Below, in pieces: positions 6,150 through 32,907 of a stretch of 64,000 nucleotides of DNA. How positions within the stretch are numbered: position 1 is the stretch's first letter; the number at the start of each line of letters is the position of its first letter. Source of the stretch: a virus. The stretch lies in IMG/VR virus record IMGVR_UViG_3300011116_000416, positions 1-64,000 of that record; one strand, 5' to 3'. The position numbers and the translations under genes were made by a program. The notes below the pieces were generated by a model that saw only the letters and a program-made list of their open reading frames with translations, searched no databases and was not told the DNA's origin.

Positions 6150-6224
6150 GGTCCCATCGTCTAGTGGTCAGGACATCAGGTTTTCATCCTGAAAACGAGA
6201 GTTCGATTCTCTCTGGGACTGCCA
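6150..6224 (+). tRNA. tRNA-Glu(TTC)
   Basis: GGTCCCA/TGGGACT acceptor stem, TCAGG-TTTTCAT-CCTGA anticodon arm, GTTCGA T-loop, encoded CCA. Confidence 0.95.
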
Positions 6225-25905: not shown

Positions 25906-26195
25906 CAGTATTCCTTATCTGTTGTTAGATATTGCCAGGTGTTAGCCCAGTCTTGCTTTGTCTTATGTTTATTAAATTCTCTGGATACTTTACCCTTATC
26001 AAGATAAATACCGCCCCAAACCCCATAAGCCTTTTGGGATACTCCAACTGCAAAACATATTCTAGCCATAGGACAAATTGAACAAAGAGAGTCAATCTCT
26101 TTTCTTACCTCGACATCTTCTTCATATTTTTCAAAGAATAGTTCGACATCTTCCCCAGCACAAATTGCTTCGTCTTTCCAATTCTCATTCGGCAT
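25905..26195 (-). CDS. whiB: WhiB-family transcription factor
   Basis: W...AIC...LFF...CSICPM...C...GVWGG; four Cys plus GVWGG. Confidence 0.92.
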   Translation of the reverse strand: MPNENWKDEAICAGEDVELFFEKYEEDVEVRKEIDSLCSICPMARICFAVGVSQKAYGVWGGIYLDKGKVSREFNKHKTKQDWANTWQYLTTDKEY

Positions 26196-27542: not shown

Positions 27543-28007
27543 TTACTTTGCTGAGTTTGCTAGAATGTGCTTTAGTGGGTCAACCAGGTCTTCGTATGGA
27601 GCCAAGTGAATGTTTGGATTGCTCCAAGCCTTATTAGCCTTACCAATAGACATGTGGAGGTGAGCCCCAGTACTGGCTGTACCGCTGGGAGTATTCTTTC
27701 CACCGCCCACAAGACCAATGGTGTCTCCAAGCTTAACCTTAGCATCTTTCTTCAATGGTGACTGTTCTGCTAGGTGAGCATAAAGCACAAAGTATCCATC
27801 CTTTGCTGAGTGAACCAGGAACCATCCTAGAACATCAGACCAAGCATTTACGAATACAGTTCCATCAGTGATTGCTGGAATTGGAGACTTCTCCTTTGGT
27901 GCCCAGTCCTGACCACGGTGTGGTCTACCCTGACGATATGGTGCTAGATTTCCAAATTCATCTCCACGAGTTTTAGCAGGAAATGGCTCTTTGTAAATTA
28001 CTGTCAT
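27543..28007 (-). CDS. M23 family peptidase (putative endolysin / cell-wall hydrolase)
   Basis: HRGQD (HxxxD), YAHL, GTASTGAHLH, DPL. Confidence 0.88.
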   Translation of the reverse strand: MTVIYKEPFPAKTRGDEFGNLAPYRQGRPHRGQDWAPKEKSPIPAITDGTVFVNAWSDVLGWFLVHSAKDGYFVLYAHLAEQSPLKKDAKVKLGDTIGLVGGGKNTPSGTASTGAHLHMSIGKANKAWSNPNIHLAPYEDLVDPLKHILANSAK

Positions 28008-28073
28008 ATTTCTACTTCCTTTCAAAAAGTATTCTATGAACTATTCATAGTAATATAATTATAACATTCTTAC

Positions 28074-28149
28074 TGGAGCTACCTGTGGGATTCGAACCCA
28101 CCACCTATGCATTACAAGTGCATTGCTCTACCGAATGAGCTAAGGTAGC
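28074..28149 (-). tRNA. tRNA-Thr(TGT)
   Basis: ATGCA-CTTGTAA-TGCAT arm; GGTTCGAATCC; CCA encoded. Confidence 0.95.
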
Positions 28150-28153
28150 GTTG

Positions 28154-28227
28154 CGACTTCGATGGGACTTGAACCCACGACCTGTTGCCTGACAAACAAC
28201 TGCTCTAACCAACTGAGCTACGAAGCC
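28154..28227 (-). tRNA. tRNA-Asp(GTC)
   Basis: GTTGT-TTGTCAG-GCAAC arm; GGTTCAAGTCC; no CCA encoded. Confidence 0.88.
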
Positions 28228-28228
28228 T

Positions 28229-28302
28229 TGGAGCGTGTAGGGAGAATCGAACTCCCACTACAACCTTGGCAAGGTTGGGCACTACCATTATGCAACACAC
28301 GC
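28229..28302 (-). tRNA. tRNA-Gly(GCC)
   Basis: CAACC-TTGCCAA-GGTTG arm; CCA encoded. Confidence 0.93.
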
Positions 28303-28306
28303 ATTG

Positions 28307-28378
28307 CTCCCCCTTCTGGACTCGAACCAGAAACCTTAGAGTTAACAGCTCTCTGCTCTGCCATTGAGCTAAAGGGGA
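28307..28378 (-). tRNA. tRNA-Asn(GTT)
   Basis: AGAG-CTGTTAA-CTCT arm; GGTTCGAGTCC. Confidence 0.92.
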
Positions 28379-28628: not shown

Positions 28629-28685
28629 AGAAAAACCCCTTTCAGGTCTATATCAATTATAGGGCACCAAAAGGGGTTTGTCAAG

Positions 28686-28982
28686 TTATTTCTTAGATGT
28701 GCTAGATGTTTGTTCATCTTTAGCAACATCTTTAAGAGCAACTGTCTGGCGGAAAGCAGCATCAATCTCATTACGAGATAGTTTGCCATCTTCCAGGAAT
28801 GCTAGGGATAGTAGTTCTACTACCTTGGCTACCGCCAAAATACCACCCATAACAGCACTGAACCAAACTGGGATATCAATTCCGCTTACACCGCTTGCAA
28901 CGGTACCAGCACCAACTACTCCAAGTGCCGATGCAACGAAAGTTGCAACGATACGCATAAGGACATTACCGAATGTTTTCAT
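28686..28982 (-). CDS. Two-TM membrane protein with EF-hand-like tail
   Basis: Two hydrophobic helices; EDGKLSRNEIDAAF. Confidence 0.75.
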   Translation of the reverse strand: MKTFGNVLMRIVATFVASALGVVGAGTVASGVSGIDIPVWFSAVMGGILAVAKVVELLSLAFLEDGKLSRNEIDAAFRQTVALKDVAKDEQTSSTSKK

Positions 28983-29161
28983 TAGTCTTCCTCCTTATCT
29001 TTAGGGTTTCTGAGTCTATAGGTCAAAGCCCACAATACAGTGCTACCAAGAATACAGTAGCCTACAACAGTTTTTGCTGAACCTTCAAGAACAATCCAGG
29101 CAACAAACATACCAAGAAGTGTCCATAGTTGGTTAATCATATCACTCAAAAAATCTTTCAT
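28982..29161 (-). CDS. Small two-TM membrane protein (59 aa)
   Basis: Translated by hand: MKDFLSDMINQLWTLLGMFVAWIVLEGSAKTVVGYCILGSTVLWALTYRLRNPKDKEED; TAATG coupling on both sides. Confidence 0.75.
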   Translation of the reverse strand: MKDFLSDMINQLWTLLGMFVAWIVLEGSAKTVVGYCILGSTVLWALTYRLRNPKDKEED

Positions 29162-29433
29162 TATGTTCTCCTTCTAGCAGAACCAGACGATGCCGAAGCA
29201 CTTGCCGCAGCAGCTGCTTGTGTAGCCATAGCCGCTGCCTGTGTTGCAATCTGTGTAACGATAATTGCTGATACCACAACCTTTTGTGCTTTTTCACGAA
29301 CTGCTGGTGGTAGGTCAGCACCGATATTATTCAGAGCATTTAATGCATCAGCAAGCCCTTCAAATACCGCCCCCACTAGTGGGATGTCTGCGACTGGGTT
29401 AGTCCCAAACTCCTTGGGGGGAATTATTTTGGG
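29161..29433 (-). CDS. C-terminal TM-anchor extension of the PA14 protein (-1 frame)
   Basis: Open -1 frame from slippery site CCCAAAA to stop at 29161; VVVSAIIVTQIA helix plus RRRT. Confidence 0.65.
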   Translation of the reverse strand, partial: PKIIPPKEFGTNPVADIPLVGAVFEGLADALNALNNIGADLPPAVREKAQKVVVSAIIVTQIATQAAAMATQAAAAASASASSGSARRRT

Positions 29434-30875
29434 TCTGGTACAAATGTTGGTCTAGGAACATATGCTCCATCTGCCATCGGTCTATTCGTCACCTTCTTCG
29501 GCTTTCTTTTATCCTTTGCTGTTGGCTTAGGAATGTTTGCTAAATCTAATTTTGCTTGAGCCAATTGTGCCTCTAATTCATCTACACGATTAACGGCACT
29601 CTGAATACCAGCAAATGTACTGGCATATTCTGCTTTTAGGTCTCTTAGATTTGCATCTTTAATAGCCTTATCATCACTTCTGAATTGCCATTCATTTTCT
29701 GCGTTATTCATTATTGTCTCAAATTGTTCTAGTGTATTTCGTTTACTTGCAAGGTCTCCACTCAATGAAACATAAGTTAGCCATTTGCCATCATAAACAT
29801 TTTCTGCAATGATGTATGTATTATATTTTTGTTCTTCTACAGCTACTGCAGCAACGAAAGCCGCTGTCTTCTGGTCTAGAACTACTTTCTTTGCAGGGTC
29901 TTTTACCCAAGTAGCAGCAGCATCTTGAGTAAAGAATGAAGTAGGAGCCACTGCCCATTGACCACCTTGTGGCTGATAGTTCAAAGTAGAACATGCACCG
30001 CCAGTCCACTCATAGAACCAAGCGTCAATAGTGTAAGATTTACCACCAGTAAAAGAGAATACACCAGTTGAGTTAGCCCCACAACCTTTCAACGACCAGT
30101 CATTAATAATTTGCTGACCATTAATTTTCATGTAAAAACCATCATCAGCAGGTGCCTGAAAATAAACTTTTGTTGTTGTTGGGTATGTAATGTATCCACG
30201 ATAATTAAGCATAATGTAGTCACCACCACAACCAAAAATACTTCCGCTACCCCAGTTAGCGTTAATGTTGCTTACCGTAACTGTTTTACACTTTGTATAT
30301 ACAACATCAGAACGACTTGGTGGATTGCCATTTCTATTAATACCAACATAGATATCGACAACCAGTCCTGGCTGAGTACCCTGACCACCTTCATTAATAA
30401 GTTGTGTATCATAATTGTTTTGAGCAATATTCATTTCTACTTCTGCATTATCTGCATTAGCCTGTGCAACAAGATAATCATTGTAAGTATTATCTACCAC
30501 ATCAGCGGCTGCATTAACATCGACAATTGCTACAGATACTAATTGCTCTGCTTCCTGAACCTGTGCATACCAAGAGTCATAATCACCCTTTTTAGACAAA
30601 TAATCTGATGAAGCAATGTCTAATGCTTCTTGTGCTTCTGTAGCCGCTGTCTGGGCTGAGTTAATCAATACCGCTTGGTCATTAGACGAATTTGTCCAGC
30701 TATCTAAATTTGCCTGAGCAGCATTAAGTTGATTTTGTAGGTCTGCAATCTTTGCTTGTGCATCTGCTACCTTGCGATTATAGTCATCTGTTGTGTCTGC
30801 ATACGCTAAAGGTGTTGCAATCATAAACAAACAGGATAGGGCTAATCCTACTGTAAATTTAAAAATTTTTTTCAT
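29424..30875 (-). CDS. Secreted coiled-coil protein with PA14-like domain
   Basis: Signal peptide (AYA-D), coiled coils, INANWGSG...YRGYI...ADDGF.MKING...WFYEWTGGA. Confidence 0.8.
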   Translation of the reverse strand: MKKIFKFTVGLALSCLFMIATPLAYADTTDDYNRKVADAQAKIADLQNQLNAAQANLDSWTNSSNDQAVLINSAQTAATEAQEALDIASSDYLSKKGDYDSWYAQVQEAEQLVSVAIVDVNAAADVVDNTYNDYLVAQANADNAEVEMNIAQNNYDTQLINEGGQGTQPGLVVDIYVGINRNGNPPSRSDVVYTKCKTVTVSNINANWGSGSIFGCGGDYIMLNYRGYITYPTTTKVYFQAPADDGFYMKINGQQIINDWSLKGCGANSTGVFSFTGGKSYTIDAWFYEWTGGACSTLNYQPQGGQWAVAPTSFFTQDAAATWVKDPAKKVVLDQKTAAFVAAVAVEEQKYNTYIIAENVYDGKWLTYVSLSGDLASKRNTLEQFETIMNNAENEWQFRSDDKAIKDANLRDLKAEYASTFAGIQSAVNRVDELEAQLAQAKLDLANIPKPTAKDKRKPKKVTNRPMADGAYVPRPTFVPDPK

Positions 30876-30920
30876 GGGGTTCTCCTAGTCAGAGGCATCT
30901 GACAAGACTATTATACCATT

Positions 30921-31110: not shown

Positions 31111-32907
31111 TTACATTATATTAATGTTGAACTGTTTGAAATAGGCATCCAAGTCTTTTTGTTCTGGTCTATTTCTTTCAATGATTGAACGCTTATCCCA
31201 TTCGTGCATATCTTCAACTTTTCTATCCCTAAAGGTATGTATTTCTACCATTTGATTTTGGTTTCTAGGTGTGTGAGATATTGCACCAAAAATTGCACCA
31301 CAGACAGCATCTGCCAAGTCTTTTGATGATTTACGAGGGTGGTCAACACGATTACCCTTCATAATCTTAAGTTCTGTTAGTTCGTGAAATAGCAGTTCGA
31401 TTGCTGGCATTACTAGACGCTCTTCATAAATAAGCATAGCCATATCTTCATAGTGCTTCTTTGCAACAGAAACAGTTTCGGTACGAATACCCACAGACTT
31501 TAGCTCATTCTGGATATCAAATGACTGCCAGCGGTCAAAGCTTACCATACCGATATCAAAGCCCAGCCTACGCAGATTTTGAATCCATTGCTTCACTTCT
31601 GATAGGTTTACTGGACCTTCAATGCGTGGCTCCCACCATACTACTGCATCTACTACTACGATAGGCATTACTTGTGAGTAGTCTTTAACTACCTGGACAT
31701 TTACCCATTTTTCAACGTGAGCAATAGCAACCGCACACTTGTCGTGCTTTTGTGCAAGGTCAGCATGGACAAAGTATTTCTTTTCTGGGTCAGGCTTAAA
31801 GGATTCTATAAAACTCTTGTTTGTGTCAATTGGATTTACGACAGTCATACAGGCACGAACCTTGTCCTGTTGCTTGAAAAATGCGTCAGACATGTATGTT
31901 GGAATACAGGCAAAACGCTGCATAGCATCGCCAAGGTCTGTATAAAAGGCTAGTTTAAAATCATCGATTTTACGAGTAGGATTGACCACCCATGTTGGTC
32001 TTTTAATGGCAAACATTCCTGGAAACTTGTAGGATAGAATATTGTCTTCTTCCCACTCAATCTCAAGGCTGTTGCCCTCAGCATCTTCGGGTAGGTCTGG
32101 ATTCATAATAAACTTATGTTTCTTTACTATGACTTCTTTGTCTGCAATTACCTCGTCATATCTAGTCGAAATAAAGTCTCCAGGGTATCTAGGAAAGGAT
32201 AGTAGGGCAACTTTGCCTAAATCTGGAAAACGGCTGTCTACGGAGGCACGGAAGGCTTTATAGATGTTGTCTGCGGTCTTTCCCTGCTCGTTTCCTGTGC
32301 CCACCTCTTGTGCAAAACCAGAAATCTCGTCCAGTACTGCCAAGATAAGGTTAAGACCCTCGTGAGACTCACGTTCTGAGTGACCAGAATAAACAGTAAT
32401 AGCTTTATTAAACTCAATGCTGTCTACCTTGGCATAGTATTTACCAGCAAACCATGGGGACTTTTCTACCTTAGTTTTAAAGCCTTTAAAAAACACGTTC
32501 TTAGCCTGTTGTGCGTTAATAGCGATGTTAATAATATCGATGGCATCTCCAGATGGTTTGCCAAAATAGCGAGCAGGGTCTTTCAAACAAAGGAGTTTAT
32601 AGACCACATAGCAACAAGCCACAGTAGATACAAAGTCTTTACCAGAACCCTTACCAAGCTGTAGGATAACCTCATTCTTTGTGTATTTTGCATAATGCTT
32701 GCGACCAGCATCATCACCCATTACCTCAATTAATTCTTCCAGTTTATAGATTTGGCTCATAGCCTCTACAATGTCATACTGAATATCTGATAGCCCTGGC
32801 TGACCCAAAAAGTCTTCGCCTTCAACAAATGTCTTTACGTCTACTGGCTTTTCTTCGAATACGTTACTCTTAAGTACCTCAATGAAATCATTGAACATCA
32901 TGGACAA
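31111..32907 (-). CDS. terL: Terminase large subunit
   Basis: Walker A LGKGSGKD, Walker B VLDEISG, nuclease HADLA..HD and DHP..SSKDLADA. Confidence 0.9.
   Translation of the reverse strand: MSMMFNDFIEVLKSNVFEEKPVDVKTFVEGEDFLGQPGLSDIQYDIVEAMSQIYKLEELIEVMGDDAGRKHYAKYTKNEVILQLGKGSGKDFVSTVACCYVVYKLLCLKDPARYFGKPSGDAIDIINIAINAQQAKNVFFKGFKTKVEKSPWFAGKYYAKVDSIEFNKAITVYSGHSERESHEGLNLILAVLDEISGFAQEVGTGNEQGKTADNIYKAFRASVDSRFPDLGKVALLSFPRYPGDFISTRYDEVIADKEVIVKKHKFIMNPDLPEDAEGNSLEIEWEEDNILSYKFPGMFAIKRPTWVVNPTRKIDDFKLAFYTDLGDAMQRFACIPTYMSDAFFKQQDKVRACMTVVNPIDTNKSFIESFKPDPEKKYFVHADLAQKHDKCAVAIAHVEKWVNVQVVKDYSQVMPIVVVDAVVWWEPRIEGPVNLSEVKQWIQNLRRLGFDIGMVSFDRWQSFDIQNELKSVGIRTETVSVAKKHYEDMAMLIYEERLVMPAIELLFHELTELKIMKGNRVDHPRKSSKDLADAVCGAIFGAISHTPRNQNQMVEIHTFRDRKVEDMHEWDKRSIIERNRPEQKDLDAYFKQFNINIM

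Follow-up and report, generated by a model that had tools for sequence, protein, structure and literature searches.

The gene for an exported PA14 lectin-type protein in a phage record very probably carries a genuine, conserved programmed -1 ribosomal frameshift at its stop codon, through which a soluble and a membrane-anchored form of one ectodomain would be made. The gene lies in a stretch of 64,000 nucleotides (nt) taken from positions 1-64,000 of IMG/VR record IMGVR_UViG_3300011116_000416 and called the window below. The arrangement has the features of a canonical -1 cassette, that is, an in-phase X_XXY_YYZ heptamer in the overlap of two frames and a -1 open reading frame (ORF) that is without an initiation signal and encodes a conserved extension. 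Annotated -1 frameshifts of tailed phages lie almost only in tail chaperone genes, with some in capsid or tail genes, and the choice between soluble and membrane-anchored forms is known from eukaryotic viruses and antibody genes. Literature searches returned no report of this frameshift, of a frameshift in a phage PA14 gene, or of a phage or bacterial frameshift that chooses between the soluble and anchored forms of one ectodomain. What is new is thus a full comparative frameshift signature in the gene of an exported lectin-type protein, with a soluble versus anchored outcome. Gene callers split such genes, so similar cases have probably been missed. The elements of the site are as follows (aa, amino acids; bp, base pairs).

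29424..30875, minus strand: 0-frame PA14 gene, an ORF of 483 aa
29427..29433, minus strand: slippery heptamer C_CCA_AAA, in phase with the 0 frame
29424..29426, minus strand: 0-frame stop TAA, abutting the 3' side of the heptamer
29370..29421, minus strand: imperfect hairpin predicted by folding, about 18 bp over 52 nt, candidate frameshift stimulator
29161..29433, minus strand: -1 frame extension by translation, 90 codons from the heptamer

On the minus strand the 3' end of the PA14 gene reads ...GAC CCA AAA TAA, and the -1 frame taken from the heptamer yields 90 residues (PKIIPPKEFGTNPVADIPLVGAVFEG...RRRT) before a TAA stop at 29163-29161, 88 of them new past ...DPK. A first-pass annotation of this DNA had described C-CCA-AAA at 29433-29427 directly before the stop of a 483-aa ORF, a GC-rich nested stem about 5 nt downstream and a -1 frame open for about 89 codons and ending in RRRT. 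These sequence observations were accurate in all particulars, and folding places the nested hairpin at 29421-29370, behind a 5-nt spacer. The window contains 97 stop-to-stop ORFs of at least 100 codons on its two strands, and only in the PA14 ORF does an in-phase X_XXY_YYZ heptamer end 0 or 3 nt short of the stop; it is also the sole ORF to combine a heptamer at the stop with a -1 frame open for at least 70 codons. None of the tRNA genes in the window (Thr-TGT, Asp-GTC, Gly-GCC, Asn-GTT and Glu) decodes the slip-site codons.

The site was compared across two sets of IMG/VR loci, 45 fetched via the PA14 protein and 80 via a relative in which the PA14 domain and the extension (the module, below) are fused in one frame, the latter being the top-ranking 80 among 256 viral stretches that encode the module. 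The gene end was present in 35 of the 40 orthologous loci of the first set, the contig being too short in the other five, and in all 35 the -1 frame stays open for 72-108 further codons and encodes a clearly conserved product (...NIGADLPPAVREKAQKVV[IV]SAIIVTQ[IV]ATQAA...RRK). The heptamer was kept in 36/36 sequences, the window included. Across both sets the module lies in a short separate frame in 45 distinct loci, and 44 of these have an in-phase canonical heptamer, which is CCCAAAA in 26, TTTAAAA in 17 and AAAAAAA in one (L032, with seven A in a row). The heptamer stands 0 nt from the stop in 38 loci and 3 nt from it in six. The conservation in homologues that had been put forward as a check is therefore borne out for all three features, heptamer, neighbouring stop and open -1 frame, in 44/45 distinct loci and in three heptamer variants.

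Two properties of these 44 loci speak directly to the mechanism. The base before the slip codons is always equal to X, though the amino acid of the codon that it closes varies (GAC, GTC, ATC, AGC, AAC, CTC or ACC before CCA; GAT, AAT, AGT, GTT or TAT before TTA). Such a wobble-base match, read from aligned sequences, is the pattern expected for tandem tRNA slippage and is unexplained by the protein. Furthermore, a -1-frame stop immediately abuts the 5' side of the heptamer in 15/44 loci, which leaves the heptamer as the sole point at which ribosomes could pass from one frame to the other there.

The stop is conserved as well. Searching a large protein collection with the PA14 protein gave 136 homologues, and the 120 listed are all 312-522 aa long, most of them 481-502 aa and none of about 570 aa as in a fusion, which indicates that the stop is conserved among them. 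Contigs from four metagenome DNA assemblies, belonging to four studies, have no indel at the site and carry the heptamer and stop without substitution; the check for inserted or missing letters proposed earlier thus came out in favour of an intact site.

The 45th locus, L048, is a different case. It is closely related to the fused PA14 clade (L048:3180-3420, IMGVR_UViG_3300042807_000317), and its ORF is broken by one in-frame TAG where L046 has TAT (IQPYIP*IEPEP versus IQPYIPYVEPEP), just before the Pro-rich linker and the module, after which the frame continues unchanged. On this one contig, the TAG could be a mutation, a sequencing error, or a site of stop-codon readthrough that would also give short and anchored forms.

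The hairpin downstream of the heptamer is a candidate frameshift stimulator; in canonical cassettes a stimulatory RNA structure follows the heptamer at 5-9 nt. In the window, the 70 nt from the heptamer fold with a free energy of -24.4 kcal/mol and the pairings CCCCCC/GGGGG+G, GGA/TCC, GTTTG/CAGAC and GACT/AGTC, and a hairpin of about 50 nt starting 5-6 nt past the heptamer is predicted at every locus but L032. The conserved I-P-x-L/V-G-A of the module is encoded by its 3' arm, and its 5' arm encodes a linker that reads PPKEF in the main clade and TQP... in the diverged one; the fused relatives lack this linker. As a control that separates RNA from protein constraint, synonymous codons of a 60-nt block were resampled at phage codon usage. 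The mean minimum free energy (MFE) of 35 distinct frameshift loci was -19.9 kcal/mol in native form versus -8.5 kcal/mol when resampled (mean z -4.0; 33/35 below -2), whereas the homologous block of 25 fused loci gave -12.0 versus -10.5 kcal/mol (mean z -0.5; 2/25 below -2). Excess stability in the frameshift but not the fused loci points to a structure specific to the loci that need a stimulator.

Further, the stem contains a compensating pair, CCCAGC/GCTGGG in L034 versus CCCAAC/GTTGGG in L036, in which both changes are synonymous, and the hairpin is maintained in diverged loci with other sequences. The conservation of the stem, likewise raised by the first-pass annotation, is seen as a hairpin 5-6 nt downstream in nearly all loci, beyond the synonymous-codon controls. 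No Rfam family matches the hairpin. A terminator was considered and rejected, as there is no terminator-like site on the minus strand at this place and the short T run that follows the hairpin is a Phe codon of the conserved module. Separately, the fused loci L113 and L114 were observed to have excess structure at the homologous place (z -2.4 and -4.0), though no frameshift is needed in them.

The -1 product itself runs from a linker through an amphipathic helix, a G-A-D-L-P-P loop, a long helix and an Ala/Ser/Gly stretch to the basic end RRRT (29175-29164). The hydrophobic core of the long helix covers residues 52-76 (nt 29280-29206), with a peak at residues 52-70 (Kyte-Doolittle 19-window mean 1.78). 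The extension had been said to add a transmembrane helix and a basic tail, and a hydropathy profile does show a hydrophobic peak, with RRRT further on; this helix would span the membrane. Together with the signal peptide of the PA14 protein, the hydrophobic helix and basic end predict C-terminal anchoring with the lectin outside.

With the 90-residue product as query, a full HMMER search returned 279 representative proteins. Among the 150 listed, the module forms the C-terminal end of the matches of at least 150 aa, which are of very varied length (up to 1148 aa), and 148/150 have two to five Arg/Lys in the last eight residues. Three matches are in-frame PA14 fusions, P0126 (514 aa), P0127 (587 aa) and P0130 (616 aa), in each of which a single frame starts with a hydrophobic, signal-like segment and runs through a PA14 domain that shares the motif DAW[FY]YEW.GGACS and a linker rich in Pro to the module; fused forms are encoded at the viral loci L046, L047, L049-L052 and L085. 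Because these distant single-ORF relatives carry the module in frame, the two pieces evidently belong to one protein. The homology shared with the fused proteins starts at A-I-P-V-L-G, upstream of any candidate start codon in the window. The possibility raised beforehand, that homologues would all be single ORFs lacking a slippery site, does not describe this family, in which single ORFs that carry the module in frame are found among the distant relatives.

The domains recognized in 98 scanned module proteins were PA14 in 20, SUEL (rhamnose/galactose) lectin in seven and fn3 in six. The module is often joined to its ectodomain by a Pro/Thr/Glu-rich linker (P0125-P0254, alignment A4), and a crude hydropathy test detected a hydrophobic signal-like start in 68/127 long module proteins. 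A structural model of the fused fragment P0125, built from a 98-sequence alignment, has an amphipathic helix at 223-238, a loop, a 36-residue helix at 246-281 and a disordered basic tail, with a predicted local distance difference test score (pLDDT) of 81-95 in 10-residue blocks covering 221-280.

The module is encoded in 256 viral-contig stretches. It matched no family in Pfam (E<=0.1), NCBIfam (E<=1) or PHROGs, gave no usable match in a protein atlas and was not found in 50,697 cultured-phage records; scanning 185,579 prokaryote species genomes with the fused alignment gave 162 candidate stretches, none of which was confirmed. A short C-terminal sorting signal (LPXTG, PEP-CTERM or GlyGly-CTERM), in which a signature motif is followed at once by a transmembrane helix and a basic cluster, was rejected because there was no NCBIfam or Pfam match and the module, at about 75 aa, has an extra amphipathic helix and a charged stretch ahead of its hydrophobic helix; only its hydrophobic helix and basic tail resemble such signals. 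The comparison thereby defines a previously unnamed C-terminal anchor module of many uncultured freshwater phage proteins, always accompanied by one small membrane protein, and offers a handle on what abundant actinophages do at the host envelope.

The 0-frame product begins with a signal peptide of about residues 1-26, read from sequence as MKK..., a hydrophobic stretch and AYA/D. Its AlphaFold2 model (mean pLDDT 83.9) contains a 129-residue helix (29-157) and a 120-residue helix (327-446), between which lies a PA14 beta domain at about residues 160-325 (nt 30398-29901), with strands over 171-302; residues 451-483 form a disordered basic Pro/Lys tail. The helices, which are modelled with high confidence, most likely form an antiparallel coiled-coil stalk with PA14 at its tip. 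Pfam PA14 (PF07691) is matched at E 6.2e-7 and 29.8 bits (cut-off 24), and the Foldseek matches in the PDB include the PA14 domain of RsgI (6qe7, 9e-10), Flo5, Flo1, a Marinomonas PA14 domain, Epa1 and anthrax PA. The earlier description of the ORF as a signal peptide, coiled coil and PA14 domain is upheld by the Pfam score above the cut-off and by the two long modelled helices.

PA14 identities among the relatives go down to about 46%. A DNA similarity search of cultured phages found nothing, and at the protein level the sole match of the PA14 protein among them was the PA14 domain of Pelagibacter phage HTVC008M. Unimolecular spanins occur in phages whose hosts have an outer membrane, and they pair an N-terminal lipoprotein signal (lipobox Cys) with a transmembrane helix at the C-terminus. 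A spanin of this kind (T1 gp11 type) was rejected for the PA14 protein, since the hydrophobic stretch passes its single Cys to a signal peptidase I-like A-Y-A/D, the fused relatives P0126 and P0127 are without a lipobox Cys, and the host is probably actinobacterial.

We infer slippage, both products, membrane insertion and topology, sugar binding and a role in a lysis or envelope cassette from comparative sequence data, and the following course of events would account for them. Most ribosomes would stop at TAA 29426-29424 and produce the 483-aa precursor, and cleavage of its signal peptide would yield a soluble exported PA14 lectin-type protein on a helical stalk. A fraction of the ribosomes would be held at C_CCA_AAA by the hairpin 5 nt downstream, where two tRNAs would re-pair from CCA-AAA to CCC-AAA, one base back, and 88 more codons would be read to give a 571-aa form; a further pause may come from the 0-frame stop right after the slip site. 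Anchored in the cytoplasmic membrane, the long form would face outward with its lectin and inward with its basic tail. In a single-membrane host, the infected cell would retain this form, and the short one would be released to the wall or water. Anchoring is the commoner architecture: related phages encode it as a single ORF whose ectodomain is PA14, SUEL lectin or fn3, and a gene for a 59-aa membrane protein (tm59) always comes next. Fused relatives produce the anchored form alone, so the frameshift clade would either have acquired a soluble isoform or have lowered the amount of anchored protein.

Several observations weigh against this reading. The hairpin of the window reaches a z of only -1.92 against dinucleotide shuffles, 8/200 of which fold as well, and the fold of L032 is weak (-11.0 kcal/mol, z -0.3). 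Column-wise covariation in alignment A1 with a 12-pair structure was not significant (82.3% paired versus 81.9% when shuffled; score 0.060 versus 0.070), and RNAalifold on A1 retained only four pairs; formal covariation support is lacking because the stems are near-invariant in the main clade and register-shifted in the diverged clade. In a quick tree the TTTAAAA loci group as one clade, which makes the switch from CCC to TTT a single event in the sample; the placement of fused sequences in this tree is unreliable owing to long branches. The hydrophobic helix, as judged by hydropathy, is only moderately hydrophobic and contains Thr and Gln. Finally, the L/V of IP-x-L/V-G is encoded by GTG or TTG in many loci, and a 70-aa protein could in principle start there.

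The neighbouring genes bear on what the frameshift may be for and on the identity of the host. They are listed below.

31111..32907, upstream of the PA14 gene: terminase large subunit gene
28982..29161, minus strand: tm59, gene of a 59-aa small membrane protein, its ATG overlapping the stop of the -1 ORF (TAATG)
28686..28982, minus strand: tm98, gene of a 98-aa small membrane protein, last gene of the apparent unit
28074..28378, minus strand: four adjacent tRNA genes, Thr-TGT, Asp-GTC, Gly-GCC and Asn-GTT
27543..28025, minus strand: M23 peptidase gene, likely endolysin (Pfam Peptidase_M23 7.9e-18; PHROG endolysin/peptidase families)
26007..26180, minus strand: WhiB-family gene (PF02467, 44.6 bits, over the cut-off)
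6150..6224, plus strand: tRNA-Glu gene

The PA14 gene does not lie between major tail protein and tape measure genes; it is placed between the terminase and the small membrane-protein genes, which, along with the signal peptide, fits the earlier view of a recoding event outside the usual structural genes. A tm59 homologue was found by tblastn directly after the module in 20/20 loci examined, frameshift and fused alike, and homologues of tm98 and of the M23 peptidase are usually close to the module gene in relatives. The only family match of tm98 is PHROG 26427 (labelled nuclease, 4.7e-20), and the protein atlas matches of the 59-aa protein are unnamed viral clusters only. The module stop and the tm59 start overlap as TAATG, ATGA or GTGA in nearly all loci, the fused ones included.

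The terminase is closest to those of Streptomyces and Gordonia phages, at about 53%, and whiB has been used as an actinophage marker, according to passages in PMC6802176 and PMC10202952. Phages of Nanopelagicales have by now been brought into culture (PMC10202952). The WhiB gene and this terminase make an actinobacterial host without an outer membrane most likely, that is, a freshwater actinobacterium with a single membrane. The phage record measures 85.6 kb and is about 80% complete.

The proximity of tm59 allows two ideas on purpose. In the first, a rather speculative one that we would not expect to hold, the system would be a lysis or envelope control device: the module would act with the adjacent holin-like two-helix tm59 protein, the swappable lectin ectodomains would report wall glycans or block phage receptors, and the slip frequency would set shed lectin against membrane sensor or anchor, and perhaps also, via the TAATG overlap, the number of ribosomes that reach the membrane-protein gene. 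If true, actinophages would time or tune lysis, or the exclusion of superinfecting phages, by translational recoding.

In the second idea, which we consider unlikely, the frameshift is real but serves mainly to gate or time the translation of tm59, whose start would be reached through the TAATG overlap only by shifted ribosomes. The stop/start overlap in nearly all loci and the adjacency of the module and tm59 in 20/20 loci agree with it, and it has a precedent in phage MS2, where a passage of PMC10885494 states that lysis-gene expression depends on a coat-gene frameshift. However, tm59 has a good Shine-Dalgarno of its own (GAAGGAG/GGAGGA), with a mean unpaired probability of 0.52 versus 0.48 in the surroundings and hence no predicted sequestration; obligatory translational coupling to tm59 was rejected as unsupported by these accessibility estimates. 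Moreover, the overlap also exists in fused loci, where every ribosome arrives, and the module itself is conserved as a protein domain. As a side observation, the Arg/Lys codons of the module tail (AGAAGGAGA and similar; 29164-29175 in the window) double as the tm59 Shine-Dalgarno.

It is quite improbable that the two frames are separate genes, with a downstream small membrane protein that starts at the GTG or TTG in IP-x-L/V-G, or that re-initiates at a near-cognate AUA or AUU overlapping the stop, and a heptamer that is incidental. In favour of this explanation, codons 18-22 of the -1 ORF include a GTG or TTG in most loci, public gene calls of 69-87 aa exist for the stretch (P0122, P0123, P0124, P0128 and P0134), and the TGA stop of L038 is overlapped by a GTG. 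Yet no Shine-Dalgarno precedes the candidate starts, the first ATG, GTG or TTG falls anywhere from codon 3 to codon 49, and the GTG/TTG candidates near codon 19-20 fall within the 3' arm of the hairpin. In L003, L007, L017, L018 and L032 the first start comes at codon 26 or later and would cut into the conserved module, and the stop of L055 and L059 is overlapped by GTA, a codon that does not initiate. Two genes would also leave unexplained the X_XXY_YYZ phase, the wobble match and the -1-frame stops before the heptamer, and the module is the C-terminal domain of larger proteins elsewhere, with homology that begins upstream of the candidate start.

Transcriptional slippage at the A run, which would give mRNAs with one A more or fewer and so fuse the frames, is very improbable. 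The site ends in an A run, and L032 has seven A, but the run is only four in 43/44 loci, a length generally reported to be too short for efficient polymerase slippage. The conserved features are instead those of tandem tRNA slippage (XXX before YYY, the wobble match and a hairpin at 5-6 nt), and the DNA assemblies are without length variation. Viral pairs of soluble and transmembrane glycoproteins made by polymerase slippage, for example Ebola GP as described in part of PMC5009743, count in its favour. Lastly, an assembly or sequencing indel, or a recently broken and decaying gene with no recoding, has a negligible chance of being the explanation: a single contig with a fusion-like -1 ORF can look so, but the same layout recurs in 44 distinct viral loci across the range of PA14 identities given above, four independent assemblies are without an indel, the 120 listed homologues stop at the same place, and the downstream module is strongly conserved as a protein.

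Known recoding systems share parts of this arrangement. In Escherichia coli dnaX (tau/gamma), the -1 cassette comprises a heptamer ending in a lysine codon and a hairpin a few nt downstream, as well as an upstream Shine-Dalgarno-like enhancer, and the shift truncates the protein. The PA14 site is like dnaX in the lysine-ending heptamer and nearby downstream hairpin; it differs in being without an AGGAGG-like element 10-14 nt upstream and in a shift that would extend the protein. With lambda G/GT it would have in common a -1 slip on X_XXY_YYZ near the end of the upstream gene, a short major and an extended minor product, and conservation across diverse phages, whereas the PA14 gene has a signal peptide and is extended by a membrane-anchor module where lambda has a tail-binding T domain. 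The lambda G/GT product ratio is 30:1, as cited in PMC5009743, and 2397/2476 joined frameshift genes in SEA-PHAGES annotations are tail chaperones according to a passage of PMC10885494.

Ebola virus GP, as outlined in PMC5009743, has secreted and membrane-anchored forms from one gene by recoding at an A run, and the PA14 gene would resemble it in offering soluble and anchored versions of one ectodomain; the Ebola gene relies on polymerase slippage in an animal RNA virus, whereas the PA14 site has ribosomal tandem-slippage signals in a DNA phage. The E. coli copA/CopA(Z) gene gives a soluble and a membrane protein through a -1 frameshift (in a statement of PMC6747150, citing Meydan et al. 2017) and would be its mirror image: there the shifted product is a truncated soluble chaperone and the 0-frame product a membrane pump, whereas the shifted PA14 product would be anchored and both forms exported. 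At the level of fold, residues of about 160-325 resemble PA14 carbohydrate binders, namely the sensor domains of RsgI anti-sigma factors, the yeast Flo/Epa adhesins and the Marinomonas RTX adhesin (Foldseek E 9e-10 to 1e-7), with a sequence identity of only 11-22%, and the proteins that carry these domains are without the coiled-coil stalk, the phage origin and the C-terminal module. Like RsgI, the long form would sit in the membrane and expose its PA14 domain on the outside.

Some minor observations concern the transcription and translation signals around the gene. A Shine-Dalgarno of the PA14 gene, AGGAGA, lies at 30886-30881, and an extended -10 type sequence, TGGTATAAT, is found at 30910-30918 on the minus strand, about 35 nt upstream of the PA14 start; the latter was read from the sequence and is absent from the promoter scan list. 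On the same strand, a perfect TTGACA-17-TATAAT promoter-like site occupies 28656-28684, directly after tm98 and before an 80-aa ORF and the tRNA cluster, which itself lies between the membrane-protein genes and the M23 peptidase gene. By this layout, PA14, module, tm59 and tm98 would make up a single unit, with the promoter-like site as the start of the following one.

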